The notes under the pieces are model-generated. The model ran no database searches and had not been told where the DNA came from. It worked only from the letters and a program-made list of their open reading frames with translations. 62,186 nucleotides of DNA, from assembly GCA_035541055.1 (NCBI GenBank), contig DATKNZ010000504.1, forward strand, positions 1 through 62,186, in the 5' to 3' direction. This document shows, in pieces, positions 1 through 24,799 of this stretch. Position numbers and translations under genes: made by a program. The number at the start of each line of letters is the position of its first letter. Position 1 is the first letter of the stretch. The stretch comes from Candidatus Acidiferrum sp. (lineage in GTDB: Bacteria; Verrucomicrobiota; Verrucomicrobiia; Limisphaerales; UBA8199).

Positions 1-173
1 TTCTCTAAATCGATCCAGGGTATCTGCATGGTGTGGCGCATCCTGGCAACGAACTGCAGTTCCTCGGGACTGGCAGCTTCCTCGGCAACCTTCAGGGTGT
101 AAATTATCAAACTGCCGAACGCGGAAGTGCTCATGTCGTGCTTCAGTGACTTGTAGACGAGGTAATAGCCCAT
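1..173 (-). CDS. Integron cassette gene, hypothetical (3'-truncated by window edge)
   Basis: ATG 10 nt downstream of the attC R' box; frame MGYYLVYKSLKHDMSTSAFGSLIIYTLKV... stays open to the window edge. Confidence 0.6.
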   Translation of the reverse strand, partial: MGYYLVYKSLKHDMSTSAFGSLIIYTLKVAEEAASPEELQFVARMRHTMQIPWIDLE

Positions 174-182
174 ATAGGTGAA

Positions 183-275
183 TGCTAACGCGGCTGCTCA
201 GTGGTGCGCCGCCCGAGACGCAACGAACGCGAACAGGCGAGTATCGGCGCGTCCACTGGAGCAGCATAGTTATGG
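183..275 (-). other. attC site (integron cassette recombination site)
   Basis: Minus strand: R'' CCATAAC, L'' TGCTCCAG ... L' CTGAGCA, R' GTTAGCA. Arms pair with the typical extrahelical bases (extra C in L'', extra A in TGGACGCGCCG vs CGGCGCACCA). 93 bp, directly after a stop codon. Confidence 0.85.
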
Positions 276-282
276 AAGCCGT

Positions 283-699
283 TCACAATTGCTGCCCGGT
301 GGTCCCGCTGTCTTTGGCCGTGGCAGGCCGAGCATTCGTTGCCGCCAGCATTTGCAACCTCGCTTTCAACTCCGCGAGCTTTTCAGCTAGGTGACTCTGC
401 CTTTCAAGCTTCAGGCAGACCTCCGCGATGTCACGCTGCGCTTCGCGCATTTTCATGCGCTGGCGTAAATCGCCTTCTAACCTTAGAACAGCTACATTTG
501 AACCCATTCCACAGCTCTGGGCCGTCCGCTGGACAGCACTGAGCAGGTGAGATGACTGCTCGACCGCCCTCCGAGCAACTCGCGCCTCCGTTTCGAGTTG
601 TTCGAAGGATTGGGACTGCTCCGACCCTCCATGCCGTACTCGCGACAGGTAACTACCCAGGATGACGAGCGCAAGCACGATCAGCCAGAGCATAAGCAT
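283..699 (-). CDS. Integron cassette gene: membrane-anchored coiled-coil hypothetical protein
   Basis: Part of ORF 283..762; the start probably lies after the GTTATGC crossover (ATG at 726, 699 or 693). N-terminal TM segment LMLWLIVLALVILGSYL. Confidence 0.65.
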   Translation of the reverse strand: MLMLWLIVLALVILGSYLSRVRHGGSEQSQSFEQLETEARVARRAVEQSSHLLSAVQRTAQSCGMGSNVAVLRLEGDLRQRMKMREAQRDIAEVCLKLERQSHLAEKLAELKARLQMLAATNARPATAKDSGTTGQQL

Positions 700-722
700 C
701 GGAAGGCGAGGTAGTCTAAAGT

Positions 723-830
723 GCATAACCTTGACTATACAGTCCACTGGTTCGTATATCACGGACCCCCGCCGGACGCTCCAAGACCTTCATAGCGCGT
801 AGTTTATCCGCCCTGCCGCGAAACTGTCAA
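723..830 (-). promoter_or_regulatory. Pc-like promoter + attI-like site (copy A)
   Basis: TTGACA(830-825)-18 nt-TAAACT(806-801), then TATGAAGGTC, GGGGGTCCG, TATACGAACCAGTGGACTGTATA and GTTATGC(729-723). Homologous to 13147-13252. Confidence 0.7.
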
Positions 831-861
831 CCCCCAAAAGTTAACGTGAACGGAAAGGTAC

Positions 862-880
862 AACGAACCACTGGTTCGTT
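862..880. repeat. Perfect inverted repeat AACGAACCA-C-TGGTTCGTT, related to the pseudo-palindrome in the attI-like module
   Basis: Read directly; CCACTGGTTCGTWTATCACGGA also occurs at 744-765. Confidence 0.7.
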
Positions 881-1101
881 TATCACGGATGCAAATCCGA
901 CACGCAAGCCGCTTAGTCCGAGAGGCTTGCGCGCCTCGCCACCTCTCGATCAACACCGTGAAATCCTATGGCCTATCGGCGATTGGCTATTGGCTATTTC
1001 CCCTCCGTGCCCTTCGTTTCCTTCTGTGTGTCTTCTGTCCCTTTTCCGGGCCGGCCTGCGCTCTCAACCCTCAACCTCCCCTTGCAGACGTCTGCACGCT
1101 C

Positions 1102-1458
1102 TCAACTCTCAACCCTCAACTTCTTCTTCGAGGGGCATTGTTCCGCCGGCAGCGGGCATTGCGGCGGCGGCTGCCCCTGCTGGCACCAGTGGCACAGCTT
1201 CCCCAGCTCCCGCTGATACTGCACCTCCTGCACCCGCAGCTCCGCCTGCTCGCGTTGCAGCGTCGCCTGCGCCACCCGGCTCTTTTCAATCCGGTTCGCC
1301 ACAATGCTCCAGAACATCGCCGCCGAAACCCCGCACCCCAGCACCAGGCCCGTCAGCCGCAGGATCAGCGACAGCCGCTCCTCGAAACTCAGCGCCACCG
1401 CGCCCGGCCCGGCAATCACGCCGATGACCGCCTTCACCATCTCATTCGTCCGCTCCAT
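1102..1458 (-). CDS. Holin-like small membrane protein
   Basis: Two hydrophobic segments, coiled-coil and basic C-terminus; last gene of the virion operon. Confidence 0.45.
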   Translation of the reverse strand: MERTNEMVKAVIGVIAGPGAVALSFEERLSLILRLTGLVLGCGVSAAMFWSIVANRIEKSRVAQATLQREQAELRVQEVQYQRELGKLCHWCQQGQPPPQCPLPAEQCPSKKKLRVES

Positions 1459-1466
1459 GCGTCTCC

Positions 1467-2306
1467 TTATTGGTACCCGGTGTAAACCGTGTAAGTGTGA
1501 ATGCCATATCTCAACCCAAGCTGGTACTCCGCCCATTGGAGGTCGTTCGTGTTCATGGTCCCGCTATACACCAATAACTCACAGAGCCCTCCAGCCATGG
1601 ACGTGTTGGCGCCTAACGCAGCGCCGCAGCCGATAGTCATCCCTCCGATCGACGTGGCGCCCGCCGTTGTGCCGACACCGCACAAGAGGCCATTGGTGCG
1701 GATGAAGGAGGCGGTCCCATTGGCGCAGAAGCTTAGGATCTGCGGCGTATTCAGCGCAAACCCTCCCGGTGGCGAGTAATACGTTCCCCCGGAATAGAGC
1801 CTCAAGGAGCAGGGCGCACCCGCCAGTATTTCGCCATAGACGCGGTTGGCGGGAGTAATCGTGAGCGTGTCATACACCAGGTTGTTGGCGGCGCCTGTGC
1901 CGTTGGTATTCAGGTTGCCGACCATCACGACCGTGATCGGCGTGCTCAGGTTGCTCAGGAACATATTGGTCATGCCTCGCGTAACCCCATCCGCCCTCCA
2001 GTACATGGCCGCGTTGGTCGTAATGAAGTTGTTGGTCCAGTACACCGAAGTCAGTGTCGAAACATTGCTGAGCACTCCGCCGAGATTGCCGGACGCATCG
2101 GCGATCCAGTTCACGCTGGCTCCACTCGCCATGTTCGTTTTGCCCGTCCAGTACCATGCGTAGGCGTTGGTCGGGGACCAATACGGCGCAGTGGGTGCCA
2201 CATACTGGCTCCCCATGAGGGCCGGGTCAGCCATCGTCCAGGCCTGCCCCACGCAACCCAGCGCGGACGCCATCAGAGCCGCGATTATTGCTGAAGCACG
2301 TTGCAT
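1467..2306 (-). CDS. Secreted LamG/concanavalin-like beta-sandwich protein (virion-associated?)
   Basis: Signal-like N-terminus MQRASAIIAALMASALGC; LamG-like C-terminus GGLCELLVYSGTMNTNDLQWAEYQL. Confidence 0.55.
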   Translation of the reverse strand: MQRASAIIAALMASALGCVGQAWTMADPALMGSQYVAPTAPYWSPTNAYAWYWTGKTNMASGASVNWIADASGNLGGVLSNVSTLTSVYWTNNFITTNAAMYWRADGVTRGMTNMFLSNLSTPITVVMVGNLNTNGTGAANNLVYDTLTITPANRVYGEILAGAPCSLRLYSGGTYYSPPGGFALNTPQILSFCANGTASFIRTNGLLCGVGTTAGATSIGGMTIGCGAALGANTSMAGGLCELLVYSGTMNTNDLQWAEYQLGLRYGIHTYTVYTGYQ

Positions 2307-4234
2307 ACGTTTGTCCTCGCATTGGGCCAGACCCAAAAGCTGATGACCGCCTCCTTGCCCGCCGGGATCGAGAGCGTGCTGGCGGACGCCTGGCCAAAGT
2401 AGAATGCCGTTGGCGGGCCAGTCCAATTGATAGCCATGGCGCTTGCGTTACTGACCGTCACCGAGATGACGTGCTGCCTCCCGGACACCAAGCCGCTAAA
2501 TCCGCTCACCGCGAAGGACTGGTTTGTCACAAAGCTCTGGTACAGGGTCGTGGAATCAATCACCTGTCCGTTGTTTGCGTTGGTAACGTGCATGCCGCTG
2601 TTCAGCACGTTGGTCTGTAGCAAACCCCATCCAGGAAGATTGTCGCTCAGCGCCGAAGACGGCACCGAGCCTGCCGTCAGGTTGGCCCCGTTCAGCGCGC
2701 TGGCGCTCGTCAGTGGGGTGAAGTTCAGCGCCCCTATCCCCACGCTCCCCGCCGTCAGGTTGCCCCCATTCAGCGCACTCGAGCCAGTCAGCGGCGTGAA
2801 ATTGAGTGCCGTCATTGGCACTGTGCCCACCGTCAGGTTGGCCCCGTTCAGCAGACTTGAGCCGGTCAGCGGCGCGACCGCCAGCGCCGTCAGCGGCACG
2901 CTCCCGGCCGTCAGGTTCGCCCCATTCAGCGCGCTGGCGCTCGTCAGGCCGCTTGCCGCAGTCAACGGCGTGAAATTGAGTGCCGTTATTGGCACCGTGC
3001 CCGCCTGGAGGTATCCCCCATACAGTGCATCGCCGGGGTGCATCACGCCCGTAATTCCACCCCCATACCCCACGATGCTGCCATCGCCCATAAACCCCGC
3101 CACCAGCGTCCCATCGTCATAGACCGCCAGGGGCATCCCGCTGCTGGCGTCACCCAACCGCAGATCAAGCACCGTGCCCGGAAAGCCGTTATTCGTCAGC
3201 ATCAGGCTCCCCCACAGAGTCCCCCCCGCCGCCGTCACCCTGCCCGCCGCCATCAGGTTGCCCGAAGGGTCCAGCGTGAGTGCGGGGCTGTTCGGGGTGT
3301 TCGCCCAATTCACCTGAATAGCATAGATGTCGTTGATTCCCGGGTGAATGGTCAGCGTATTCGTCCACGGCGCACTCTCCACCGAGCTCGTGATCGTCAT
3401 GTTCCCAACCGCCGGGGCATCCCCGGGATGCAGCACCCCATTCAATTGCGAGCCATCCCCCGTATAGCCTTGCGCGTCGACCCAATCGCTGAACTCGAAC
3501 GTCGGCCCGAAATCCTCGCTGGCGCTGTATTGGATCGAACCATTCCACCTGTCTCCATCCGCATTGGTATAGATCATGAACAAATAGACAGGCGAGCCGT
3601 TGCCCGACTCCAAGGACATGTACGGCGCGAAGTTGGGAATCCAGGGCGCGCCGGTGATCTCCGTGTACGGAATCGCATCCCCGGGATGCAGGACATAGCT
3701 CAAGTCCAGGCCCGAGCCTACAAAATTACCCGCCTGCACCTCGGCCGATCCGAAGCTGAAGCCCGCCGGGTTGATCGTCTGCTGCCAGGTATGCAGCGTC
3801 CCGCCCGGGTCGTGGTAATTCCAGTTCAGGATCGGAAAGCCCGCCGTGGTATAGCTGCCCGTCTGCAGTGTGAGACTGGGTGACCCATTCGTCCACCCGC
3901 CGCCCCCGCCGCCGCCCGAGGGCCACGTCGTCTGCGTCACGCCGCCCAGCGTGAGGCCTCCCGGTGGCGCGAAGGGTACCGTGCTATAGGCGTTCAACCC
4001 GTTCAGGAGCGTGTCCGCGTTCCCGTTCTGCTGCATGAACGCCGGCGTCACAATATCCGCCGGGTGCTTGCCCAACACGGTCTGCCCCAGCGCCGGCAGG
4101 GCGAGCGTTCCCGCCAGCCCCACCAGGAGGGCGAGCGTCCTCGCGAGCCCAACCATGCGGCCTTTTCTTTTGGCCCCCGTGCAGACGTCTGCAAGCAGCG
4201 GCACCGTGAATCCCAGGAGGAAGTTGCGTTTCAT
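2285..4234 (-). CDS. Fibre/adhesin-like protein with ~26-aa repeats
   Basis: Tandem LNGANLTAGSVPxTALNFTPLTxxSA repeats and VLHPGDA repeats; G/T/N-rich; signal-like N-terminus. Confidence 0.65.
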   Translation of the reverse strand: MKRNFLLGFTVPLLADVCTGAKRKGRMVGLARTLALLVGLAGTLALPALGQTVLGKHPADIVTPAFMQQNGNADTLLNGLNAYSTVPFAPPGGLTLGGVTQTTWPSGGGGGGGWTNGSPSLTLQTGSYTTAGFPILNWNYHDPGGTLHTWQQTINPAGFSFGSAEVQAGNFVGSGLDLSYVLHPGDAIPYTEITGAPWIPNFAPYMSLESGNGSPVYLFMIYTNADGDRWNGSIQYSASEDFGPTFEFSDWVDAQGYTGDGSQLNGVLHPGDAPAVGNMTITSSVESAPWTNTLTIHPGINDIYAIQVNWANTPNSPALTLDPSGNLMAAGRVTAAGGTLWGSLMLTNNGFPGTVLDLRLGDASSGMPLAVYDDGTLVAGFMGDGSIVGYGGGITGVMHPGDALYGGYLQAGTVPITALNFTPLTAASGLTSASALNGANLTAGSVPLTALAVAPLTGSSLLNGANLTVGTVPMTALNFTPLTGSSALNGGNLTAGSVGIGALNFTPLTSASALNGANLTAGSVPSSALSDNLPGWGLLQTNVLNSGMHVTNANNGQVIDSTTLYQSFVTNQSFAVSGFSGLVSGRQHVISVTVSNASAMAINWTGPPTAFYFGQASASTLSIPAGKEAVISFWVWPNARTNVCNVLQQ

Positions 4235-4237
4235 AGT

Positions 4238-4389
4238 TGGCTATTGGCTATCGGCTATTGGCTATGGGTTGAGGTTGGCTATCGGCTATCGGCTATTGGC
4301 TATGGGTTGAGGTCGGCTGTTGGCTATTGGCTATTGGCTATTGGCTATGGATTGACGGCAGCGGCGCGTTTCATTGGATGTTGGATGTT
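4238..4389 (+). repeat. Heptamer repeat cluster (GGCTATT/C, then GGATGTT)
   Basis: More than 10 GGCTATY units between two fibre-like genes. Confidence 0.9.
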
Positions 4390-4395
4390 TCCATC

Positions 4396-6468
4396 CTAGC
4401 TGCTCGCGATCAGCCCGTGCCCCGTCCCGGCCCGCAGCGCCGCCAGCAGCAGGTTGAGCTGCGCAATGGCCCCGTGCACCTGGCCGAGGAAATTCGTCAT
4501 ATCGGCGGACGAGGCAAACCCGTAGCCGCTCGCCGTGGGCGTGTAACTCCCCAGGTCCGCCGCGTTCGTGATGGCCGCCTGTTGCGCCCCGACCACCTGC
4601 TGCCCCTGCACCGTCAGCGCGGCCCCGTTGCCGGTCACAAAGCCGCCCTGGGCCGTGAGGGCCTCGCTTCCGCCGTCCACGGACACCATCACCGACCCGT
4701 TGTAGAGCCATTCCAGTTGGCCCGTCGTGCCGTTCACCCGGATGCCCCAGGCCGGTCCCGCGGCCGAATCGAGCTGGATGGCCGGGTCCAGCCCCGCCGC
4801 GAGTTCCAGCGTCGAGTCCACCACCCCGCCCGAGAAGGCGCTGATCGCGTCCAGCTTCGCCTTGTCGCTCGCGCTCATCGCCCCGGCGGCCGTCCCCGTC
4901 GCCAGCGGTAGGGTCAGCGCCCCATCGCTCAGGGCCAGCGGGCAGCCGGAGTCCAGGCTCAGCCCCAGCGCCCCGCTGGTCACCGTCAGCGGCGCGTTCA
5001 CCGAAGTCACCAGCCCCAGGCCGGAAGTGTCCAGCCCCAGCAGGTTGTTGCTGTCCAGCGTCAGCGGCGGCGCCACGTTCGAGATCACGCACATCGCATC
5101 CAGCTTCGCCTTGTCCGTTGGCGCCATGAAACCCCATTGCGCTTGCGTAACTTGCGGTGTGCTCCCGTCTTGCAAAGCGGCCAGCGCCGTCCCCTGCTGC
5201 TCCAGCGTGGCCACCAGTGCCGCCGTCATGTAGCCGTCCTGCGTGTCCGTCGCCGGCGGCATCGAGACGTTCCCGTCCGCGTCCTGATTCAGCGGCGGCA
5301 GGAACGCGAGCGTCGTCAGCTCGTCCAGCTTGATCTTGTCCGCCGCGCTCATGGAACCCGGTTGCGCGTGAGTTGCCGGCCACAGGCTCACCACTCCGCT
5401 CGCCAGTTGTAGCGGGGGCTGAAAGAGCAGCTCGGGCGTCCCCACCAGCATGTCCAACGCCGCTTTGTCCGCCGCCGCCATAAACCCCGGCGTGCTCTCC
5501 GTCGCCACCGAGTGCCCGTGATCGCCCGCCGCGCATTGCCAGGCGCTCGTCCCCAACACCGCGTATAGCCCGCTAGACGACACGCCCAGCGGGGCCTGGC
5601 CCGGTCCCGTCGAAGGGTCGAGCCGCACGCTTGGAGTCAGCGTCCCGTCCGCGTTCGTCCAGCCGATCGTGCTCGAGCTGGCCAGCCACGTGGCCGCCCA
5701 GTCGCTTACCCCCGTGCCGAAGTCGAGCGAGGCCACCGTATGCGTGTGGTTGCCCGGGGCCGCTTGCGTCGCCGACGTGCCGAAATCCACCGCCAGCCCC
5801 GAGGTCGTCAGCAGCAGTCCCCCGTTCGCTTCGATCAGCACTTCCCCCGAAAGCTGTTGGTCCACCAGCGCCAGTTGCAGGCTGGAGCTGGGGCCGAGAG
5901 TCAGCGGGTTATGCAGTTGCGCGTGGGTATGGTCGCCCGTCGCCGCCTGTGTCGAGCCCGTGCCGAAGTCCACCGCCAGCCCCGCCGCACTCACTACCAG
6001 CCCGCCATCAGACTGCACCCGTACTTCGCCCATGATCCCGCTCGCCGGCAGCCATTGCAGCGTGTCGCTGTCGGCCAGCTCGATCATCAGGAGGTTGCCC
6101 AGCGCCGTGCTCAGGTCCACCACATCGGCAGACACGTGCGTATGCCCCGGCATCGAAACCCGGCCCGGGTCCACCGCCAGCCCGTCCGGCGCGCGCATCA
6201 GCCCGCCCGAGGTCGAGAGCTGCACCAGCACCCCGCTGATCCCCTGCCAGTCCAGGTCCCCGCCCAGTGTCGCCAGCCAGTTGCCAATGCTCTCCAGCAC
6301 TGCGGCGGCGAAATCCGTCACGTCGCCCGACTCATGCGTATGGCTCAGGGCTGCCTTGCCCGCCAGCGCCGCCGTCATCTCTTGCAGCCGCGTCAGGTCG
6401 GTCGGGTTGGCCGCCGCCTGCGTGGCGGAAATGCCCCCGTTTACGGTAGTCGTATTGAGCTTGGCCAT
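4396..6468 (-). CDS. Phage tail/head fibre-like protein
   Basis: Repeated xHTH motifs, repeated G(F/S/A)MxxxDKxxLD motifs and PLTVTSGALGL-type beta repeats. Confidence 0.75.
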   Translation of the reverse strand: MAKLNTTTVNGGISATQAAANPTDLTRLQEMTAALAGKAALSHTHESGDVTDFAAAVLESIGNWLATLGGDLDWQGISGVLVQLSTSGGLMRAPDGLAVDPGRVSMPGHTHVSADVVDLSTALGNLLMIELADSDTLQWLPASGIMGEVRVQSDGGLVVSAAGLAVDFGTGSTQAATGDHTHAQLHNPLTLGPSSSLQLALVDQQLSGEVLIEANGGLLLTTSGLAVDFGTSATQAAPGNHTHTVASLDFGTGVSDWAATWLASSSTIGWTNADGTLTPSVRLDPSTGPGQAPLGVSSSGLYAVLGTSAWQCAAGDHGHSVATESTPGFMAAADKAALDMLVGTPELLFQPPLQLASGVVSLWPATHAQPGSMSAADKIKLDELTTLAFLPPLNQDADGNVSMPPATDTQDGYMTAALVATLEQQGTALAALQDGSTPQVTQAQWGFMAPTDKAKLDAMCVISNVAPPLTLDSNNLLGLDTSGLGLVTSVNAPLTVTSGALGLSLDSGCPLALSDGALTLPLATGTAAGAMSASDKAKLDAISAFSGGVVDSTLELAAGLDPAIQLDSAAGPAWGIRVNGTTGQLEWLYNGSVMVSVDGGSEALTAQGGFVTGNGAALTVQGQQVVGAQQAAITNAADLGSYTPTASGYGFASSADMTNFLGQVHGAIAQLNLLLAALRAGTGHGLIASS

Positions 6469-6544
6469 AGGCTATCGGCAATTGGCTATTGGCTATTGGC
6501 TTGCCTTCGTTTCCTTCGTTTCCTTCTGTGAAAATCTGTGAAAA

Positions 6545-7990
6545 TCACAGGCTGGCTTCCGCTTTCGGATCAGGCTTCCCCACCGGCCGCCCCGCCTTCT
6601 CCCGCAAGCCGTCCTGGCCTTGTCGGCCTGGCTGGCTGTTGTGGTTCGGATCGAATCGCGGCAGCAGCTCCTCATCCCGCTTGGGCGAAGCCTCCTCCCG
6701 CTTGCGCTCCGCCTCCTGTGCCGGGTCGAAGTCGGCCACTTCCAGCGCCGAGGTCAGGCTCACCGGCCCCTGTTGCATCAGCGCCTTGGTCATGTCCCAG
6801 GCCAGCCGCACATCGTTGAAACACCGCTCACCCCACTTCACCCGCACCTTGCACGGCAGTTGGAAGCCGCCCGCGTTGAGCACTACCTCCAGGTGCGCCC
6901 CCACCCGGGCGCGGTCGGCCAGCGCGTCCGCCCGCAGGATCGGCAGCAGGAACGGCTGGAGCTGCTTCGTGATGACCATGTAGCCGATGGGTCCGGCCCA
7001 CCACAGGCACCGGCTCACGATGGTGTCCCACTTGCGCGCATCGTAATGGTTCGGGTCAATCCAGATCGTTTCGATCTTGTGATCGAACTGCTTGGTCATT
7101 TCCGCGAAGCCCTGCCTCCCCTTGAAGAACTCCTCAATCCCCTTGGCCCGTTCCTTCTTCCACAGGTACTCGGCCTGCTTCATCGCGTTGCTCGCGCTCC
7201 GCACCTCGAACCCCAGCGAGTGCGCCCGCACCACCAGCCGTCCCGCGTAGGCCAGTTGCGACTCGCCCACCTCCATGCTCTCGCACTGGCTCAGCGTCCG
7301 GTAAATCCGGTACAGCCGGGGCGTGCCGAATCCCGTCCCGCGCCGCCCTCGCGTCAGCACCCGGAAATATTCGTCAAACTCCTCGGAAAGCAGCACCTCC
7401 CGCCGCGTGTAGCGTTGGATCTCCTCCAGCGTCCAGCCGTCTATTGGCTGGCCGTTCTCGTCGAGGAACATCGCCTTGCGGTAGCCCAGGTCCACCTTCA
7501 GCTTCTCCAGCCCCATCGCGTCCGTGTAGCGGCAGGACTCCGGTTGCAGCAGGAACGGCGTCACCTTCTTCTCCTTCCGCCAAAAGCTCACCACGTTGTC
7601 CAGCAGCAGCCATTCCTCCCACACCGACACAACGTAGCGGTAGAGTCCCTCGCGCCGGTCATCGTCCGCGTCGAGCCACTCGGCCAGCTTGTCCTTGGCG
7701 CCCTTGTCGTGGGGCACCAGCCGGAAACCGTAATGGTAGAACGCCAGCTTCAGCTTGTTCACCTGCTCCACCAGCCAGCTCTGCTTGTCCCATTCCCGCG
7801 CCAGCTTGAACGCGGCCTGCAGGTCCACTGGGTGTTCCCGGTCGAAGATCTCCTCCGGCGACAACGTCGCCAGGTTTTGGGCCCCCGTCTCAATGTCCAG
7901 GCTGCACTTCGCCAGCGCCATGTTCTGCTCGGCAAAACGGTGACCGCGCCGGGTTGGCCCCGGCTGCTTTCTCGTTAGGCGTTTGGTCAT
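6545..7990 (-). CDS. Portal-like protein
   Basis: About 480 aa downstream of the terminase; portal-type features (WEEWLLLDNVVSF, GFGTPRL, disordered charged C-terminus). Confidence 0.6.
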   Translation of the reverse strand: MTKRLTRKQPGPTRRGHRFAEQNMALAKCSLDIETGAQNLATLSPEEIFDREHPVDLQAAFKLAREWDKQSWLVEQVNKLKLAFYHYGFRLVPHDKGAKDKLAEWLDADDDRREGLYRYVVSVWEEWLLLDNVVSFWRKEKKVTPFLLQPESCRYTDAMGLEKLKVDLGYRKAMFLDENGQPIDGWTLEEIQRYTRREVLLSEEFDEYFRVLTRGRRGTGFGTPRLYRIYRTLSQCESMEVGESQLAYAGRLVVRAHSLGFEVRSASNAMKQAEYLWKKERAKGIEEFFKGRQGFAEMTKQFDHKIETIWIDPNHYDARKWDTIVSRCLWWAGPIGYMVITKQLQPFLLPILRADALADRARVGAHLEVVLNAGGFQLPCKVRVKWGERCFNDVRLAWDMTKALMQQGPVSLTSALEVADFDPAQEAERKREEASPKRDEELLPRFDPNHNSQPGRQGQDGLREKAGRPVGKPDPKAEASL

Positions 7991-8016
7991 AAAAAAAAGG
8001 ACGCCCTCAGGCGTCC
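7991..8016 (-). terminator. Intrinsic terminator immediately upstream of the portal ATG
   Basis: Minus strand GGACGCC-TGAG-GGCGTCC-T8 followed directly by ATG. Confidence 0.6.
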
Positions 8017-8212
8017 ATCTACTTCCATCACTCATCTTTCGGCGCCGCCGTCAACATCGGAATGCAGATTCTTCAACGCGCAATCACTTGTGCAGGCGTC
8101 TGCACGTTCGACCGCGCCTCGGCTATCGGCTCTTAGCTAGCGGCTATCGGCTATTGGCTATCGGCTATCCCCCCTCAACCCTTCTTCGTTTCCTTCATTT
8201 CCTTCTGTGAAC

Positions 8213-8551
8213 TCAGTGCCGTGCAGGCGTCCGCAGGTCCTTCCGTTGGATGTTGGATGTTACACCCAATCTCACGTTGTGCCGCTGCCTCCCAAACCGC
8301 CGCGCCTCCTCGTGCGTCGCCACAAACACATCAAACCGGTCATCGTAGATGCGGGCCAGCCGGTCGGTCACCACCCGCTCCCCTATCCCTTCGATATACA
8401 CATGCGTCCCCAGCGGTATCCACCGCGGCCCGGCCACCGTCAGCCCCGCCACGGGCTGGTGCCCGTTGGCGGCTGCCCGGTGCGCCTCGCCGCAACACCG
8501 CGCGCAATGGCAGTAAGCGGTGATCGTCGCCGCCGTCAGGAGCCAGCTCAT
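8213..8551 (-). CDS. 3D (Asp-Asp-Asp) domain peptidoglycan lytic enzyme
   Basis: TAYC...VAGPRWIPLGTHVYIEGIG.RVVTDR...FDVF...EARRFGRQ matches the 3D-domain pattern. Confidence 0.8.
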   Translation of the reverse strand: MSWLLTAATITAYCHCARCCGEAHRAAANGHQPVAGLTVAGPRWIPLGTHVYIEGIGERVVTDRLARIYDDRFDVFVATHEEARRFGRQRHNVRLGVTSNIQRKDLRTPARH

Positions 8552-8572
8552 GTCTTCTTCATTCGGTGTGAG

Positions 8573-9433
8573 TCAGTTCCTCCTGCCCCGGCGTGTGTCC
8601 CATCCGCTAAACCCCACCGCGTCCTCGGGCGCGAGCTGCGACCGCCAGGTCCCGCTCTGCAGCCAGAACAGGAACGCCGCGTAGCAATACATCGCCGCCG
8701 ATACAAAGTCCTTTTTGCTCAGGGACGAGAACTGCCGCGCATTCCGTTTGGTAAACGCCCAGGTGCCATCCGGCTTCGTCGCCACGATGATCTTGGTGAG
8801 CTGGCTGGCCAGCGCGTCGAGGTTCTTGAGCGCCCACATCCGTTCTTCCGGCCAGCGTTCCACCTCAGCCCGCTTTTCGACCATCCAGTCGGCCACGCCC
8901 GGGGGCAGCGCCCACAGCCCGTGCTCGATGGCGTTCTTGGCCGTCGAATATAGCGCGTCGTTCAGGTTGTCGTCGCCCGCCAGCTCGGGCCACATGCTCT
9001 CCACTCCCGGGTCGCCGCGCTTGAACATGTGCAGGATGAAATCCGCCCGCGCCACCAGCGTCGGCCCGTCCACCAGGTCGGCAATGGGTGTTGCGTGCGT
9101 CTCGATCCCCTCCAGCAGTTGCTTCGTCGCGATCAGCTCGCGCTTGATCAGCACCCCGCCCCCATTCGGGTCCATGCAGATCCGCGCAAACCGGAACGCC
9201 CGGTGCAGCCCGTGGATGATCCCCGACCATTGCCGCGCCGTCGCCTTCTGCCGCCACGTCAGCCGCCGCCCGTAGATGAAATCGAAGTACCAGTCCTCGG
9301 CGGCCTCGGGCATCCCCTCCGCCGTGCGCGGCGTCGCCACACCGACCACCAGCGCCCCGTCATCGCTCTTGTGCGACTCCGAAGGCGCCGGGTCCACCCC
9401 GAGGAAAAACGCAATCCGCTCCCGATCTAACAT
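8573..9433 (-). CDS. Terminase large subunit, C-terminal RNase H-like nuclease domain (separate ORF)
   Basis: FFLGVDPA, SDDGALVV, ICMDPNGGG and KKDFVSA motifs. Confidence 0.75.
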   Translation of the reverse strand: MLDRERIAFFLGVDPAPSESHKSDDGALVVGVATPRTAEGMPEAAEDWYFDFIYGRRLTWRQKATARQWSGIIHGLHRAFRFARICMDPNGGGVLIKRELIATKQLLEGIETHATPIADLVDGPTLVARADFILHMFKRGDPGVESMWPELAGDDNLNDALYSTAKNAIEHGLWALPPGVADWMVEKRAEVERWPEERMWALKNLDALASQLTKIIVATKPDGTWAFTKRNARQFSSLSKKDFVSAAMYCYAAFLFWLQSGTWRSQLAPEDAVGFSGWDTRRGRRN

Positions 9434-9466
9434 CTTGGCTATTGGCTATCGGCTATCGGCTATTGG

Positions 9467-10507
9467 CTATTGGCGATTGGCTATGCCCTCCTCCCCTTCG
9501 TTCCCTTCGTTCCCTTGGTGTAGAACCTCCTCATACATCCTCGCGCTCAGTACCGGCGTCACATGCCGCTTGCGTCCGATCTCCACCGCCAGGTTCACCG
9601 CCTCCTCCGTAAACCACCCGTCGCCGTCCAGCCCCCAAATCCCCAACCCTTGGCCCAGCCATTCCGTCTTGCTGCACACATTGCGCTTGTTGGCGATTGT
9701 GCCCTCGATGCGAAACTCCTCCCGAAACGTCTTGCCCGTGTGGCACATCAGCCCCGAGTAATCCTTGTAGGAATACGAAATGTTCGCATACGTCGGGTTG
9801 CCCCGGTCGCACTGGCGCTGGTGCCGCTGGTACCGGGCGTAGGACGGATGCCGCCGCGTTTGCGCGTGCGCCGTGAACAGGATGTGGTTGCCCCAAATCG
9901 GGTGGTTCTGGTTCCAGCAGGGACGGCTGGTGCGGTCAATGAGCTGCTTGTTGATGCCATCGCTGCTCGCGTCCACGTGCGTCCATTCCTCCACCACCAG
10001 CACGTTGAGACGGATCGACCCTTGCGTCACCGCGTCCTTCATGAAGGACGGCGCCGGCATCAGCACCTTGCTCCCGTCGCGGAAGAACGCCTTGTAGCAC
10101 CCCGCCCCGTGTGCCGTCCCGTCACCGTCCTTCTGGTCGCCGTCGTCCAGCCGCGGCGGCCCGAGCTGCGCCCGGTAAAGCGGCGCCTGGATCTTCGAGA
10201 AGTATTCCCAAAACGTCAGCTTGCCCTGCTCGAATACCGGGTAATAGATCGCAATCTCCTGGTCGGGAATCAGGATCGCCCGCAGGTTCAGGAAAACCCA
10301 GTCCACGATGGTCTTGCCCGACGAAACCCCCGACGAATCAATCACGTTCTGCACCCACCAGTAGTAGCGGAGCCGCAGCGCCTGGAACGCGTCGAGCCGG
10401 ATGCCGAAGATGATCTCCGCAGCCATCACCGGGTCGCACAGGAAATCCGCCCACATCGTGGGCGTAATCCGCAACGACGGCGGCACCGATGGAACCAGAA
10501 TGTTCAC
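9467..10507 (-). CDS. Terminase large subunit, N-terminal ATPase domain (separate ORF)
   Basis: LDAFQ adenine-binding motif, Walker A SSGVSSGKT, Walker B LVVEE. Confidence 0.8.
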   Translation of the reverse strand: MNILVPSVPPSLRITPTMWADFLCDPVMAAEIIFGIRLDAFQALRLRYYWWVQNVIDSSGVSSGKTIVDWVFLNLRAILIPDQEIAIYYPVFEQGKLTFWEYFSKIQAPLYRAQLGPPRLDDGDQKDGDGTAHGAGCYKAFFRDGSKVLMPAPSFMKDAVTQGSIRLNVLVVEEWTHVDASSDGINKQLIDRTSRPCWNQNHPIWGNHILFTAHAQTRRHPSYARYQRHQRQCDRGNPTYANISYSYKDYSGLMCHTGKTFREEFRIEGTIANKRNVCSKTEWLGQGLGIWGLDGDGWFTEEAVNLAVEIGRKRHVTPVLSARMYEEVLHQGNEGNEGEEGIANRQ

Positions 10508-10886
10508 CTCGGCTATTGGCTATCGGCGATTGGCTATTCCCTGTCCGCCATCGGCCCTCACCTCTCAACCCACCTCGCGCAACACCGACTCCCATGTAAA
10601 CCCCGCTTTCTCCACCCACCCCTTCACGCCGCGCACCGCCGTCACACAAGCTGCCCGCCGCCGCCGGCAATCCCGGAACGCCCCGCGATCAAGCACCCTG
10701 TCTTCGGGAGGGCGAGCGTCCCCGCGAGCCCTGACTTCTCCCCGCTCCGCATTCCGGCCTTCGGCGCCAGCCCAACCAATGCGTCGCCCTTGGCTATCGG
10801 CTATCGGCGATTGGCTATTCCGGTCGGTCCGGTCCAGCCAGACGTTGCGTTTGTTTGTGTTACGGGGCGTATGGGGCTTATCCGTC

Positions 10887-12128
10887 TTATTTCGTCTCTT
10901 GTTGTACATGGTTCTCTTTCGATTGCTCCGGCCCGGCGGGTTTCGTCAGGTCCGGTAATTCTTCGTATTCCCCCTCGGGGCCGTCTGCGTTGAGGTCCGG
11001 CAGTTTCTTCGCCCCATCCGCTTCCCAGGAAGCCTGGTAGGCTTGGGTCCACGCCTCGCGCACATGCCGCAGCCCGGCGTGATGCAGCTCGGGGGCCCAG
11101 CGGAAATCCCACAAGTGCGCCTTGGCCTCCGTTGCAAAAAGCACAAAGCCCGCGCTGTAGTGCGGCACCGGGTTCTGCACGCTCGTGCGGCAGTCAATCA
11201 GCACCTCCGTCAGCGTGAAGATGCCGTCAATCAGCTCCGTCCCGCCCCGCGCCTTGTATTCCTGAATGGCCTTCGTCACGTCCCCCAGCGACCCGCCAAA
11301 ATTGTACTTCCCGGCAATCGCGCCCGCCCACGGGCATAGCTCCTTGATCTGCGCCAGCAGCTTTTGATACCGCTCCGATAGCGCCTGCCTCACCTTCAGG
11401 TTCGTATGCCACTGGCTGTCTCCCGGCTTGCATTTGTCCGGGTCGTTCATCAGCGCGTCGAGCTGGTAAATCCGCAGCTCCGTGATCAGCGTGTCCCGCG
11501 CCAGCACCGCCGCGAACTTCTCGTTCAGCGTCTTGCTGTAGTCCTGCACCCGTTGGCAGAACCACGCCTTCTCCGCCGACGAGCCGAACTTCAGCGCAAA
11601 GCCGTATTTCTCCAGCAGCTCCTCCTCGCTGAACAGCCCCGTCGGCTTCGGCGTGGCCTCCACCGGCGCGGGCGCTTCCTTCGGCCGCAACGCCTGCCAG
11701 GCCCCGCGCACCGCGTTCAATTCATCCCCGAGCTGCTTCCGCGTCAGGCCCAGCGCCTCCTGCAATTCCGGCCGCGTCCAGGGCCGCAAATCATCGAGCG
11801 ACGTCGTGGGCGGCGGCACCAGCGGCTGAATGCCGAACAGCCGCCGTGTCACCAGCCACCCCCGCTCGTTCACGTGCGCCGCCTGCACAAACTCGGCCAG
11901 CTCCTCGGCCTTCACCTCGAACTCGGCCGTCAGCGCATCAAACCGCCCGCAACGCCACGCCTGCCCCTCGTACCGAAATTCCACCAGCGGGTTCACCGCC
12001 GCCGGCGCGGACGGGGGCCCAGCCGGTGCAGACGTCTGCACGCCGCCCTCGCCGAAGACCAGTTGCCCTTCCCCTTGGCTATTGCCTACTGGCGATTGGT
12101 TATTCCCCGTCTTCATGCTCGGTTGCAC
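10887..12128 (-). CDS. Phage hypothetical protein (HTH-like segment; terminase small-subunit position)
   Basis: 413-aa ORF with phage-like codon use; WTRPELQEALGLTRKQL resembles an HTH. Confidence 0.6.
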   Translation of the reverse strand: MQPSMKTGNNQSPVGNSQGEGQLVFGEGGVQTSAPAGPPSAPAAVNPLVEFRYEGQAWRCGRFDALTAEFEVKAEELAEFVQAAHVNERGWLVTRRLFGIQPLVPPPTTSLDDLRPWTRPELQEALGLTRKQLGDELNAVRGAWQALRPKEAPAPVEATPKPTGLFSEEELLEKYGFALKFGSSAEKAWFCQRVQDYSKTLNEKFAAVLARDTLITELRIYQLDALMNDPDKCKPGDSQWHTNLKVRQALSERYQKLLAQIKELCPWAGAIAGKYNFGGSLGDVTKAIQEYKARGGTELIDGIFTLTEVLIDCRTSVQNPVPHYSAGFVLFATEAKAHLWDFRWAPELHHAGLRHVREAWTQAYQASWEADGAKKLPDLNADGPEGEYEELPDLTKPAGPEQSKENHVQQETK

Positions 12129-12205
12129 GGCTCGCGGTCAGGCAGCAGTTGCCCTTCTCCTTGGCTATTGGCGATTGGCTATTCCCTGACTTCATGCTCG
12201 GACCG

Positions 12206-12940
12206 TCAATTCTGCCCCTCCACGATCTGCACGATCTCCCCAAACTGCGGCAGCAGCTTCTCCGTCGTCGTCAGCATCGGGTGATTCCGGCGGCTCGCCA
12301 CGAAGTTGCAAACCCGGTTGATCTCCTCGTCCGTAAAGCGCCGCAGCACCTTGAGCGCGTCCTGCACCAGCCCCTCGCTGTAGCCGTGCGTCGGACGCGC
12401 GTTCTTGAACAGCGCGTTGTCGCACGACACGATCAGCCGCACCACCCTCTGCCGCGTCTCCGGGTCGAGCGGCTCATTGTGCTCGTCCACCATCTTCGAC
12501 TCCGCGATCAGCAGCGCCTGCTGGAACGCCTCACCCGGGGCCTTCCTCTGCCGCAGGCTGTAGGCCCGCATGTCCCCGCCCCGCTGCGCCTGGTTGCGCG
12601 GCATGCAGGCCGCCCCGTGCAGGTTCGCAAACCGCGGACAAACCCAGTCCGTCCCGTCCGCCTTCAGCAGCCGGCTCCGCACGAGCAGCTCCCAGCAATC
12701 GGGAGGGCGAGCGTCTCCGCGGGCCCTGATATTCTCCTGCCCCGGCACATTGATCGCCGCCACAAATGCGGGCCGGTCCTCGTTGCGAATCCTCCCGGGC
12801 GCCAGCCCCTCCTCCGTGAAATACGCCAGCTCGCGCCAGACGACCCACCACAGCCACAAGGCATTCGCCGGCCCCAATTCTCCCTCCAGCACCCGGAAGG
12901 GGGGAAGACTCATCAGGTCAACTGGCAACTGCACGATCAC
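12206..12940 (-). CDS. Phage hypothetical protein
   Basis: 244-aa ORF co-oriented with the operon; carries an in-frame REP-like insertion (RARGDARPP). Confidence 0.6.
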   Translation of the reverse strand: MIVQLPVDLMSLPPFRVLEGELGPANALWLWWVVWRELAYFTEEGLAPGRIRNEDRPAFVAAINVPGQENIRARGDARPPDCWELLVRSRLLKADGTDWVCPRFANLHGAACMPRNQAQRGGDMRAYSLRQRKAPGEAFQQALLIAESKMVDEHNEPLDPETRQRVVRLIVSCDNALFKNARPTHGYSEGLVQDALKVLRRFTDEEINRVCNFVASRRNHPMLTTTEKLLPQFGEIVQIVEGQN

Positions 12941-13077
12941 GGCATGGTGGGAGCGCCCGGGCTGTCCTCTTACGCTCCTTTATCTCCGAAACCGCTCTCG
13001 CCGTCAACAGCTAAATGTTACTTCCTCACCGCGCAATTCACCCGGTGCACGGCCCACTACCGCCAGCGGTTGCGAGA

Positions 13078-13093
13078 TGTTCCACGTGGAACA
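13078..13093. promoter_or_regulatory. parS: Canonical chromosomal-type parS site
   Basis: TGTTCCACGTGGAACA, a perfect 16-bp palindrome matching the widespread bacterial parS consensus; intergenic. Confidence 0.8.
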
Positions 13094-13146
13094 TTCTCGA
13101 CGGTGACCGGGGGCAGGCACCCCCGCCGCGCACGCTACGATGAGGC

Positions 13147-13252
13147 TTGACCTTTTCGCACCAGAGCAGGTAAGCTGCGCCTTATGAAGGTCCTGGCGCA
13201 AGCGGGGGTCCGCGCTATACGAACCAATGGTCTGTATAATCAATAGTTCGGC
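13147..13252 (+). promoter_or_regulatory. Pc-like promoter + attI-like site (copy B)
   Basis: TTGACC-18 nt-TAAGCT, TATGAAGGTC, GGGGGTCCG, TATACGAACCAATGGTCTGTATA, then GTTCGGC (13246-13252) 6 nt before the cassette ATG. Confidence 0.7.
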
Positions 13253-13258
13253 GAAAGC

Positions 13259-13552
13259 ATGAAACTGCCCCACGAAGTGAGCGGAGCACTGAGGACGTTC
13301 TCGTATTTTCTCGCGAGCGGAACGCATTACCTGCTCGAGGGTGTTCCTTACCTGGACCTATACGGGAAAGAGCCAAGCGCCATCGAGCAGACTTATGCGA
13401 TTTTCGCGAACGTCCTTGAGGTGGATGAGAATGGCAAGGTCACGAATCTGAAGCATGCTGAGAAGAGGGCGACCGATTACCTGCGTTCGTATTGCGATCC
13501 TGCTTTTCGCGTTGAGCCGCCGTTCGAAAATTGGGAAGTTGAACTCCATTGA
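13259..13552 (+). CDS. Integron cassette gene, 97-aa hypothetical protein
   Basis: Compact ORF between GTTCGGC and an attC; lower GC; opposite strand to the phage operon. Confidence 0.8.
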   Translation: MKLPHEVSGALRTFSYFLASGTHYLLEGVPYLDLYGKEPSAIEQTYAIFANVLEVDENGKVTNLKHAEKRATDYLRSYCDPAFRVEPPFENWEVELH

Positions 13553-13559
13553 TGAAAGA

Positions 13560-13649
13560 GCCGAACCTGTCGCGTCAGCCAACGCCGGGAGAGCGTCTCG
13601 GTTTAAATTGGACGTCAGTGGCCCGGCGTGGCTGCGCTCATCGTTCGGC
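13560..13649 (+). other. attC site
   Basis: R'' GCCGAAC, L'' GCGTCAGC, CAACGCCGGG...CCCGGCGTG, L' GCTGCGC, R' GTTCGGC; extrahelical T and A; 90 bp. Confidence 0.9.
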
Positions 13650-13664
13650 GACACGTGGCGCAGC

Positions 13665-13958
13665 ATGAGAAACCTCGGATTGACCTTCTTGATCGTCGGC
13701 TTCCTCTGGATCGCTTGGGACTGCGCTGAAGGCTTTGTGGGCTACCAGTACACGCACTGGATCTGGCAAACGCAGCACTTGCCTGCGGGTGAGACCATCA
13801 AACGCACTGACGCCGAGGGGGCCATGCGGGCGTTGAGTCTGAAGTTGAAAAACCGGCACCGAGAGATTCTCGTCCCGGCGCTGGTCATGTTTGTAGGAGG
13901 CTTGATTCTGGGATTCAGCCGGAGCCCGATAGCCGAACGAGCCGCTTCACCCCTATGA
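13665..13958 (+). CDS. Integron cassette gene, two-TM membrane protein
   Basis: MRNLGLTFLIVGFLWIAW...ILVPALVMFVGGLILGF; starts 15 nt after the attC R' box. Confidence 0.75.
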   Translation: MRNLGLTFLIVGFLWIAWDCAEGFVGYQYTHWIWQTQHLPAGETIKRTDAEGAMRALSLKLKNRHREILVPALVMFVGGLILGFSRSPIAERAASPL

Positions 13959-14033
13959 GGGTTGTCAAGAGCGTCGTTCGGTTGGGCAAACCGGAGCCAA
14001 GCGGCGCGGAGCCGCTGGTCGTGGCCGTTAAAC
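13932..14033 (+). other. Degenerate attC-like site
   Basis: R'' GCCGAAC (complementary to the cassette's GTTCGGC) pairs with TCGTTCGGT at 13974-13982; alternative R' GTTAAAC at 14027-14033; L boxes are poor. Confidence 0.4.
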
Positions 14034-14037
14034 CAGC

Positions 14038-14577
14038 ATGAACACAATGGATACTCCTCCGGTTATTGCGCGTTCTGTTCGGTTCTCACTCGATAGGTGG
14101 GATGTTCTGCGTTGCCGGCTTTGGGTGGTGGCGCACAACCGCAAGCTCGTGACCATTCTTCTGCTTGTTTGTATAGCGGTTCCCGCCCTGACTTATCACA
14201 CCCCCGAAGGCGTCCGTTTCCCTTTGGCTTATTGTGTGTTTTACTTTGTGATAACGGCCGCTGTTATGTTGGCTTTGAATGCTGTTTTTCAAGTGGCGTT
14301 CCACACGGTTTGGCTCTTCCTTAACAAGAATCCCGGAGTGGTCGGCGAGCACGAGTTTATTATTCAAGACGACGGGCTGGTGGAGAAGACACCCTTCAAC
14401 GAATCTTTGCATCGTTGGGCGGGCTTTCAGAGAATTGCTTCTTCGCCTAATTATTTGTTTCTCTTCGTGGCAGGCAATATCGTGCACTACATTCCGTTAA
14501 GGATCTTTGCATCCAAAGAAGAGGCTGGCAGCTTTCGGGCGGAACTCCAAAGAAGGGCGGATGCTGTCAGCAAATAG
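14038..14577 (+). CDS. YcxB-like membrane protein (probable cassette gene)
   Basis: Two TMs, then G.HEFII.DDGL...W..FQRI...NYLFLF...HYIPLRIF, typical of the YcxB C-terminal domain. Confidence 0.75.
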   Translation: MNTMDTPPVIARSVRFSLDRWDVLRCRLWVVAHNRKLVTILLLVCIAVPALTYHTPEGVRFPLAYCVFYFVITAAVMLALNAVFQVAFHTVWLFLNKNPGVVGEHEFIIQDDGLVEKTPFNESLHRWAGFQRIASSPNYLFLFVAGNIVHYIPLRIFASKEEAGSFRAELQRRADAVSK

Positions 14578-14670
14578 CGGCGGCCCGCATCTGTTCGCGA
14601 CTCCCGGCGCTTGCGTCCCTGTCGTCGCTTCCGTCCCTTGGCTATCGCCTCCCTGCAGACGTCTGCACGC

Positions 14671-15414
14671 TCAATAGTCGCTATCCCAATCCGGGAACCA
14701 CGGCGGATTGCCCGGGTTGCCCCTATAGATGGTGGTAAACGGCAGCCAGTTCGCCACGTTGTCGGAACCACCGGAGGCGTTCAGTGTGCCGGTGTAGTCT
14801 GCTGGGTCCGTCGCCTCGGGCAAAAACCATCGGCTCACAATCCCATACCGCTCTACCGGCGTCGTCGGCGCCAGAAAGTCCAGGTAGTCCGTCACCCCCG
14901 GCAGCTCGATCTGCTCCGCCTGAGCCCATAGGTCGTAATCATTGCAGGAGCTACAACGCAGCATCAGCCCCTTGGCCGGCCCCCACAGCCGAAACTTCGA
15001 GATCAGCCCCAGTCCGCCGGTAGGCGAGGTCCACTGCCGAAACGAGGCCACCGTAATGCTCGGCGCCAGCTCTGGCAGCACGTACCATCCGTTCGACCCC
15101 GACACTGCCCACCGTTGTCCCAGGTGCCGCCGGATCAGCCCCGTTGACGGCGTGTCGGTCACCATCACCGTCCCCGGCGGCGGACTCCATCCCGTTACGC
15201 TCGTCGGCTGCGCGGGCCGCGGCTGACCGTAAGCCGCGGTATACGAGTAGATCATGTAGTACCCCCGCGTCGGGTTCGGAAACGGAATGTCCTCAATCGA
15301 AACATTCCCCACGATCTGCACGATGGACGGCATCGGCGAAAACGACGCCAGCCCCTTCGTCCCGCTGGTCCCCAACTGGATCACCTGGCTCGGCCCCATC
15401 GTCAGCGCATCCAT
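14671..15414 (-). CDS. Phage structural hypothetical protein
   Basis: 247-aa beta-rich ORF following the large virion protein. Confidence 0.55.
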   Translation of the reverse strand: MDALTMGPSQVIQLGTSGTKGLASFSPMPSIVQIVGNVSIEDIPFPNPTRGYYMIYSYTAAYGQPRPAQPTSVTGWSPPPGTVMVTDTPSTGLIRRHLGQRWAVSGSNGWYVLPELAPSITVASFRQWTSPTGGLGLISKFRLWGPAKGLMLRCSSCNDYDLWAQAEQIELPGVTDYLDFLAPTTPVERYGIVSRWFLPEATDPADYTGTLNASGGSDNVANWLPFTTIYRGNPGNPPWFPDWDSDY

Positions 15415-24445: not shown

Positions 24446-24799
24446 GGCCCCGTGCCCCCGCCTTTCGCCGCCCCCGATCCACCCCGGCTGCCCAGGAGGA
24501 GCTGGCCAGCGGGCCTCCGAGCGTGGACCCGTTCACCACCTCACCCCCTCTCGATTATTCCGGCAATTTTTTTCACAAAATTCATGCCCCCAAGGGAGCT
24601 TATGCCGTCATCTGCGGTTGCCCTGATTTCCCTAAGCTTTCCCTGCGCTTGCCCCGGACCATGAAACCGCAAACAAGCGCGCCTTTGCCCCCTGTGCAAT
24701 CGGTAGGGCAAACCGGATTATAGGCGCGCAATCGGGGCAACGTTGACGCTGGCAACATGCCAGCAACGGGCGAATGCCAAGCCCCGGGCGCAATTAAGT

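Follow-up and report, generated by a model that had tools for sequence, protein, structure and literature searches.

We analysed a stretch of 62,186 nucleotides (the window), which is the entire contig C504 (DATKNZ010000504.1) of the Candidatus Acidiferrum sp. genome GCA_035541055.1 (G000), a metagenome-assembled genome (MAG) of 6.8 Mb in 534 contigs with 92% completeness. We found that a prophage on it carries two homologous modules of a predicted promoter and an integron attachment site attI (pads A and B), each heading a different array of attC-bounded gene cassettes and neither accompanied by an intact integron integrase gene (intI). The whole phage likely has four such pads, two of them in the window. 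The cassettes resemble phage morons, accessory genes that sit in variable slots among the core genes under a promoter of their own (here a predicted one), but differ from them in being attC-bounded, and they would be exchangeable by site-specific recombination. With a probability of roughly 55%, the pads are integrase-less docking sites that are loaded in trans and used as moron slots. The arrangement is real, larger than first reported, built from known parts and not exclusive to phages.

Two homologous pads with different cassettes

Pads A and B align over 106 bp with 76% identity (E 4.5e-15 in a search of the 6.8-Mb genome), and their similarity stops at the GTT of the crossover site (G at 729 and 13246). 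An earlier note on this DNA, made from the letters alone, had described two homologous modules of about 107 bp with these promoter boxes and this end point, both inside a prophage and with different cassettes behind them, and all of this held. The features of the two loci are as follows.

731-836, minus: pad A
801-830, minus: predicted promoter of pad A (TTGACA 830-825, 18 nt, TAAACT 806-801)
716-793, minus: leader open reading frame (ORF) of pad A, 25 codons, beginning 7 nt past the -10 box and crossing attI into the start of the first cassette
723-762, minus: attI of pad A, crossover G|TT with the G at 729
854-888, minus: degenerate first attI-like site with a 19-bp palindrome (862-880), directly behind the intI start codon
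889-972, plus: 5' stub of intI, 28 codons, divergent from pad A
283-726, minus: gene of cassette A1, 147 aa, no Pfam, NCBIfam or PADLOC match
183-275, minus: attC of cassette A1 (39.3 bits, E 4e-7; bottom-strand fold alone weak, z -1.3)
1-182, minus: initial part of cassette A2, which the contig end truncates; likely continuation of the array at positions 1-2200 of contig C220
13141-13243, plus: pad B
13147-13176, plus: predicted promoter of pad B, aligned to that of pad A (TTGACC 13147-13152, 18 nt, TAAGCT 13171-13176)
13184-13246, plus: leader ORF of pad B, 20 codons, its TAG stop overlapping the crossover (TAG|TT)
13210-13252, plus: attI of pad B, G of GTT at 13246
13259-13552, plus: gene of cassette B1, DUF7677 (PF24725, E 5e-42)
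13560-13649, plus: attC of cassette B1 (model match 13559-13649; 67.1 bits, E 4e-14; bottom-strand fold z -5.1)
13665-14033, plus: cassette B2, with a 97-aa gene (13665-13958) and a damaged attC (R'' at 13932 mirroring the upstream 7-mer, GTT at 14027) that the model does not score
14038-14577, plus: third gene of array B, YcxB-like (PF14317, E 1e-10), no attC found after it

Read from the integrase side, the layout is the divergent intI start, the degenerate attI-like palindrome, the -35 box, 18 nt, the -10 box, 7 nt, the leader ORF, attI and G|TT. Cassette promoter (Pc) activity is predicted from consensus and conservation: the promoter of pad A is the top promoter-like site in positions 1-15000 (10 of 12 matches) in a scan whose number of sites equals chance (3 versus 3.0), that of pad B scores below the scan threshold, and the -35 box is conserved in all six copies of the pad family that the genome holds. 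The predicted promoter of pad B runs antisense to the flanking phage genes. The leader frame is likewise open in all six copies (20-39 codons), the sole internal indel between A and B is 3 nt, and several intI-linked attI regions of relatives show a similar ORF by eye. No Rfam family was found within positions 1-15000.

The attC sites were scored with a covariance model of our own, built from 17 attC sites that all lie outside the window; simple hairpin scans were noisy, and one of them overlooked the attC of cassette A1. The model recovered both sites that the earlier note had drawn (183-275 and 13560-13649), with no further window match at E<=1. The claim that the genes behind each pad all end in an attC held for A1 and B1, while array A is cut by the contig end and array B has a scoring attC behind the first of its three genes alone. 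By our model, attC-bounded cassettes as in complete integrons therefore stand behind both pads (67.1 and 39.3 bits). The arrays of the prophage are clusters of attC sites lacking an integron integrase (CALINs), array A if it continues on C220; array B, with one scoring attC, would count as a single site. The junction between pad A and cassette A1 is spanned without differences by a contig of sequencing run X2 that covers positions 358-777.

The pads are remnants of complete integrons

The earlier note had reported that no IntI gene lies beside either pad or elsewhere in the window. No intact intI was indeed found in the window or in the G000 assembly (no TIGR02249 match above the cut-off in G000), but the 28-codon stub at 889-972 directly adjoins pad A. 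It shares 21 of its 28 residues with the full-length IntI protein P0177, which belongs to the same clade as the G758 protein described below, and is 64% identical (E 1.8e-5) to a stub in genome G564; among 2478 window fragments it is joint-best against an IntI N-terminal profile, yet weak alone (E 0.24). G564 carries the same pad family with a clearer intI stub (74% over 97 bp, E 2e-9). Used as a query, the G564 stub matched nine places in 8 of 401 genomes, counting G000 and G564; eight of these are stubs and one is intact. The intact protein (325 aa, genome G758) passes TIGR02249 with 268 against a cut-off of 265. Its attI sits at the intI start codon and aligns with both attI-like sites of pad A (723-762 and 854-888) and with pad B (0 of 5000 shuffles each), which answers a check that the earlier note had proposed, whether the module stands beside intI elsewhere. 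At an initial set of 30 intI loci a pad profile gave no significant match, and the cognate clade was found solely via the stub.

Insertion at these sites has left a regular trace. By established mechanism, attI x attC recombination leaves the footprint that the bases after the attI GTT reappear in the R'' box of the first cassette (PMC4889954, in the parts consulted). We compared the two at four positions per site (the chain rule). The 14 sites compared agree at 51 of their 56 positions, 11 of them at all four, against a shuffled mean of 29.4, and 0 of 200,000 shuffles reach 51. Pad C220b on contig C220 (no GTT), the pads on contigs C171 and C647 of genome G755 (first attC unparsed) and the other G000 modules except that on C497 were omitted, and the second pad on contig C471 of G755 was retained despite a score of 1 of 4. 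Pad B scores 4 of 4 and pad A 3 of 4, in keeping with the earlier observation that the GTT 7-mer is mirrored by R'' without a mismatch in B and with a single one in A. By G758 homology and the chain rule, the pads are attI sites with cassettes inserted at G|TT, as in complete integrons, while the intact intI that would stand beside such an attI is absent.

Because an intI stub lies beside pad A and the attI matches that of the intact G758 integrase locus, the pads are attI sites with a predicted promoter and remnants of complete integrons, not phage inventions. Loss of intI with retention of its 5' end is common in this order. As a side observation on this clade, eight of the nine N-terminal matches among the 401 genomes (loci L184-L192) are short stubs, most of them near cassettes or attC.

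The pads lie in a temperate prophage of probably about 94 kb

A large terminase marks the region between the pads as phage, and further phage genes lie on contig C220:

8573-10507, minus: large terminase in two ORFs, ATPase (9467-10507) and likely nuclease half (8573-9433)
49468-49508, minus: prophage attachment (att) site, a 41-bp copy (40/41) of the 5' end of tRNA-Leu(CAA)
C220:44225-44311: full tRNA-Leu(CAA), adjoining a tyrosine integrase gene

The AlphaFold2 model of the ATPase (mean pLDDT, its local confidence score, 88) matches the T4 gp17 ATPase in Foldseek (E 8e-9), and among full-length terminase homologues 12 of 21 match PHROG 2. As a separate observation, the terminase is split in two ORFs here and in many homologues, while others have it as a single fused protein of about 570-600 aa. 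A tape-measure protein is encoded on C220 as well; together with terminase, integrase and att duplication this identifies a temperate tailed phage. The major capsid and portal proteins are candidates assigned by position, with no PHROG or Pfam match and a single-sequence fold of pLDDT 33 for the capsid candidate.

The window (49508 down to 1) and C220 (1-44265) are very probably one prophage of about 94 kb, broken inside array A. This well-supported join follows from the tRNA-Leu att site split between the contigs, the clustering of a palindrome on both, the gene order in relatives and the matching array ends: array A runs off window position 1, and C220 opens with an array tail in the matching direction. 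In 6 of 11 terminase-bearing relatives, and likewise in G755, a genome of another family, a single contig carries homologues of window genes and, after them, homologues of C220 genes. The contig ends have no exact overlap, and the run contigs examined did not show the join. The terminase also occurs on a 125,035-base contig of another assembly. That pad A belongs to a host integron outside the phage was considered and is ruled out by the att boundaries and the gene order in relatives.

The 10-bp palindrome CAGACGTCTG was noticed along the way. Of its 23 sites in the genome, 19 fall on these two contigs, several near cassette-array ends (window 1085, 4182, 12029, 14656, 18906, 19242, 22596, 27595, 32882, 39678 and 45999, plus 8 on C220), and it is possibly an operator or a phage-specific repeat.

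Six pads of one family and other modules in the host genome

The earlier note knew of two pad copies; a profile search found six in G000, with pairwise identities of 51-90%. Besides A and B these are C220a and C220b in the prophage (C220 6400-6527 and 36408-36536) and two chromosomal copies, C398 and C136. The same note had taken the pads for a phage possession, which fails, since these two and at least eight more modules of promoter and attI, from other sequence families (on C497, C72, C423, C206, C525, C266, C254 and C396), lie on the host chromosome. Remains of intI occur at several sites. Among the pads, A has the 28-codon stub, C220a a decayed one, and B, C220b, C398 and C136 none that scored; elsewhere intI is broken at C497 and C206, and C72 and C423 have stubs of it. 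At A and C220a the stub ends lie within about 4 codons of each other, and the homology of these two pads continues past the upstream attI-like site into the stub (241 bp). Such a second attI-like site precedes the promoter in A, C220a, C220b, C398 and G564.

Each of the six pads heads a different cassette array, and none of the cassettes in the four phage arrays has a second copy in the G000 genome. Scoring attC sites number four behind C220a, two behind C220b and one behind B; the one behind A and the three at the C220 start give four for array A if the contigs join. Library scans covered 19 phage cassette proteins, the cut cassette A2 not among them. Pfam families found are DUF7677, YcxB, DUF6678, DUF2947, WapI-like, HEAT and DUF4145, and one of the 19 proteins matches the anti-phage system PD-T7-4 (E 1e-83).

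The sequencing runs that contain the window are wetland metagenomes, of which X1 may be the source sample. The host is probably a member of Verrucomicrobiota, judging by the source labels on homologues (Limisphaerales, Chthoniobacterales). Between 58 and 72% of each run was covered, so that zero depth at C220:1-602 carries no evidential weight. In runs X1 and X2 the cassette at C220:604 is preceded by another attC tail than in the MAG, one absent from G000.

Behind the chromosomal C398 pad, the initial ~22 bases of the first cassette (locus L023, about 4340-4363) equal those of the inserts behind attI in two other genomes (L052 and L063), one of which leads into an integrase-like gene.

Related prophages carry other pads or none

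The terminase is present in 11 of 400 order-level genomes. Pads and attC sites were sought in 38 stretches (687,625 bases) around the terminase in these 11 genomes plus a hit in G062, whose portal-like fragment proved not to be a syntenic prophage; the related prophages of G570, G710 and G477 were fully covered and those of the remaining genomes in part. Comparison of related prophages for different cargo, another check proposed earlier, succeeded in G755, whose prophage carries different pads and cassettes. Arrays stand there at two places of contig C163, each headed by a second, unrelated promoter-leader-attI module; the two modules are 81% identical to each other and obey the chain rule exactly. 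One occupies the gene slot of pad B in opposite orientation, and the other the slot between terminase and portal, where G622 and G722 carry other inserts. A third prophage pad of G755 lies on C684 beside a homologue of the prophage methyltransferase. In total G755 has eight pads, three on prophage contigs and five elsewhere (one beside a truncated intI), and no intact intI. At the end of its phage array, the start of the last cassette aligns for 132 bp, up to the contig end, with the first cassette behind a chromosomal pad at 99% identity, which would point to exchange between phage and chromosome. In G722 one scoring attC was found, with no pad by eye. Variable slots are general in this phage family, with inserts of 5.8-8 kb between conserved genes in G570, G710, G622 and G722.

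Three further loci were noted in these genomes. A ~130-bp element with terminal inverted repeats sits at the same point of at least four attC sites by eye (G755 L110: 6260-6385, 13160-13285, 14300-14430 and 15355-15475) and is likely an attC-targeting miniature inverted-repeat transposable element. Contig C471 of G755 (L194) has two tandem pads 1 kb apart in one chromosomal array (2735-2809 and 3707-3782). G710 has chromosomal attC clusters (C1 133239-136188 and 961050-961645) far from its frameshifted intI.

Wider searches gave little. BLAST found the pad in 0 of 40 close relatives. Among 400 order-level genomes only the G564 pad was real, and 25 others gave short weak matches at which a profile check showed no pad; one such locus, L160, contains a scoring attC. 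Pattern matches in three viral contig sets (0, 1 and 0) and in GTDB contigs (8) were treated as chance, all nine being without attC or pad beyond the pattern, and two metagenome pad matches are the C136 and C398 loci of the same organism and hence not independent. Related phages in IMG/VR were found neither with the large terminase protein nor with a first alignment, apart from one distant match (24% identity, no attC), and none was found in 400 phylum-wide genomes.

How the pads may have arisen and been loaded

In the preferred reading, an integron of the G758 clade with its promoter outside intI would have lost intI, and its promoter and attI would have been copied to likely four variable moron slots of one temperate phage of about 94 kb. 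The promoter of this pad family lies between two attI-like sites outside intI, so that expression would survive deletion of the integrase gene. IntI supplied in trans would then have inserted different cassettes at G|TT of the pads, and the predicted promoter would express them as phage cargo, to the possible benefit of the phage. The leader ORF of 20-39 codons, predicted to be leaderless, would bring ribosomes to the first cassette, as ORF-11 of class 1 integrons. Loading after the loss of intI is suggested by pads A and C220a, whose stubs end almost equally yet whose arrays share no cassette. The reading is further favoured by the recurrence of pads in the G755 prophage, the other attC tail at C220:604 in two runs, the cassette start that phage and chromosome of G755 have in common, and the PD-T7-4 match.

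The main rival, less probable but quite possible, is that whole integrons multiplied in this host and that some of them came to lie in prophage slots which tolerate inserts. These would have taken up cassettes by means of an intI of their own before losing that gene, and the arrays would now be fixed and owe nothing to selection on the phage. The following observations weigh against loading in trans, and several speak directly for such fixed arrays. The modules are a host trait, with 10 of 14 in G000 and 5 of 8 in G755 off phage-homologous DNA, and at least ten chromosomal modules have a missing or broken intI. The intI of C497, C72 and C423 was lost at different end points (profile positions 75, 58 and 47), and copying before intI loss thus does occur in this host; the predominance of stubs (8 of 9) among matches to the stub query also speaks for fixed arrays. 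No intact intI was found in G000 or in G755 (87% complete), so no trans-acting enzyme has been identified, and the earlier proposal that a host IntI acts in trans is unproven, with no intact host intI in a MAG of 92% completeness. Support in the pad tree is 35-80, and the tree does not resolve a direction from phage to chromosome. Signs of decay are the single good attC for three genes in array B, decayed attCs, GCG instead of GTT at pad C220b and a 1-nt deletion in the leader of two of the eight G755 pads. The fully covered prophages of G570, G710 and G477 have no pads and no attC above 18 bits (best 17.5 bits, E 0.38), even though G570 has an intact intI and G710 a frameshifted one. Of the cassette proteins, 18 of 19 have no PADLOC match, and the alternative junction at C220:604 could be an assembly difference or a second array. 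Loss of intI with stable arrays is also described in Xanthomonas (10.1101/2025.06.18.660453, in the part of that study available to us).

What fixed arrays explain less well is the distribution and upkeep of the pads. Four of the 14 modules of G000 lie in a prophage that makes up 1.4% of the genome (nominal P 3e-5, the copies not being independent), and three of the eight in G755 are on prophage contigs. The stubs of A and C220a end almost equally while their cargo differs, the -35 box and leader frame are kept in 6 of 6 copies despite pairwise identities of 51-90%, and two runs show an alternative cassette junction.

Dispersal of the pads as mobile units is improbable. IntI would recombine the upstream attI-like site with a downstream attC, and the resulting circle of promoter, attI and cassettes would reinsert at secondary sites, which would explain the dispersed copies. 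The second attI-like site upstream of the promoter in five pads accords with it, as does the reported insertion of attC circles by IntI at genomic attG sites (10.1101/2022.09.11.507474, as far as consulted); however, the 241-bp homology of A and C220a passes the upstream site into the intI stub, so that the boundary is not at that GTT, and phage arrays and the rest of G000 share no cassettes. The same attG literature would allow a phage promoter present in several copies to be followed by cassettes at ordinary GTT sites of the genome, with no real attI involved, in line with the single scoring attC per locus within the window. This is very improbable and largely refuted, the site being homologous to an intI-linked attI, pad A having an intI stub and the same module heading chromosomal arrays.

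Extending the docking-site reading to the phage family is tentative. The family, probably of Verrucomicrobiota, may at least twice have independently domesticated promoter-attI modules of different IntI clades, dropped the integrase and multiplied the modules into moron slots, where any host IntI would reload defence and accessory cassettes; this would make it a multi-site, self-expressing cassette shuttle between hosts.

Relation to described systems

A survey of 10,705 phage genomes yielded three complete integrons, one In0 and 17 CALINs (Qi 2023, PMC9892861, in the sections seen, as for what follows on this prophage). Its Shewanella prophage M16-3 has one integron and one CALIN, each with attI, and resembles the present case in two homologous attI in one prophage, one of them heading an array without intI. 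M16-3 has an intact intI and is called a cryptic prophage, whereas the present prophage has no intact intI and likely four pads. Further differences are that promoter and leader ORF are preserved outside intI and that the G755 prophage repeats the arrangement with an unrelated attI family. The earlier note knew of no duplicated attI-promoter pads inside a phage. An attI-bearing prophage CALIN has been published, while several attI-promoter copies in a phage without intact intI, or such pads recurring across a phage family, were not found reported in a literature search that covered few subscription papers.

CALINs are defined by attC only, attI and Pc having been searched for classes 1-3 only, and 15 of 279 had a nearby intI pseudogene (Cury 2016, PMC4889954, in the parts consulted). 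The present arrays agree with them in lacking a nearby intI, whose loss is one origin listed there, and differ in that attI, predicted promoter and intI origin are traced. From class 1 integrons the pads share the letters of the sigma-70 boxes and a short ORF over the crossover whose stop may come from the first cassette (PMC8876359, seen in part). The class 1 Pc has a 17-nt spacer, lies inside intI1 at 223-252 bp from the crossover, and its ORF-11 has a Shine-Dalgarno site, while the pads have an 18-nt spacer, a promoter about 100 bp from the crossover outside intI and an ORF 7 nt past the -10 box. They do not have the 5' region of class 1 integrons; the likeness to class 1 Pc variants drawn earlier reduces to the sigma-70 consensus, and descent from them was rejected on both spacer and position. 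With single attC sites lacking an integron integrase (SALINs) and attG insertions, the pads share IntI-dependent cassettes remote from an intI gene (10.1101/2022.09.11.507474, same part), but insertion is here at an attI homologue rather than a generic genome site, and the arrays are not SALINs.

Other features of the prophage

The prophage end holds a defence-like block (window 36022-45626) with HEPN (RiboL-PSP), GmrSD-N/NsnA-like and DUF4760 genes and a type III restriction-modification pair. A serine recombinase, a RadC-like gene and their neighbours (24743-35883) recur both on C484, C241 and C59, with nucleotide identities of about 70-78%, and next to the related prophages of G570 and G477; they may form a nested or companion element. 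The conserved phage gene at 15440-18823 (1127 aa) contains an in-frame stretch of host heptamer repeats (129-bp duplication, 16306-16608), at which its tblastn matches to relatives stop or break; REP-like hairpins of the ATCCAAC heptamer are very numerous on many contigs of G000.

Implications for cassette traffic

If the pads still work, the phage could draw on the integron cassette pool of its host through several sites in parallel, expressing what it takes up from promoters of its own, and could transfer this cargo to new hosts without encoding an integrase. Cassettes, anti-phage genes among them, would thereby have a route of spread, and morons a mechanism of turnover. Beyond the phage, the pads supply attI sequences for integrons outside classes 1-3. 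In these hosts, arrays without an integrase often retain promoter and attI, with at least 14 such modules in one genome; tools that rely on attC do not report them. This retention makes the question of whether a CALIN is dead or reloadable directly testable.

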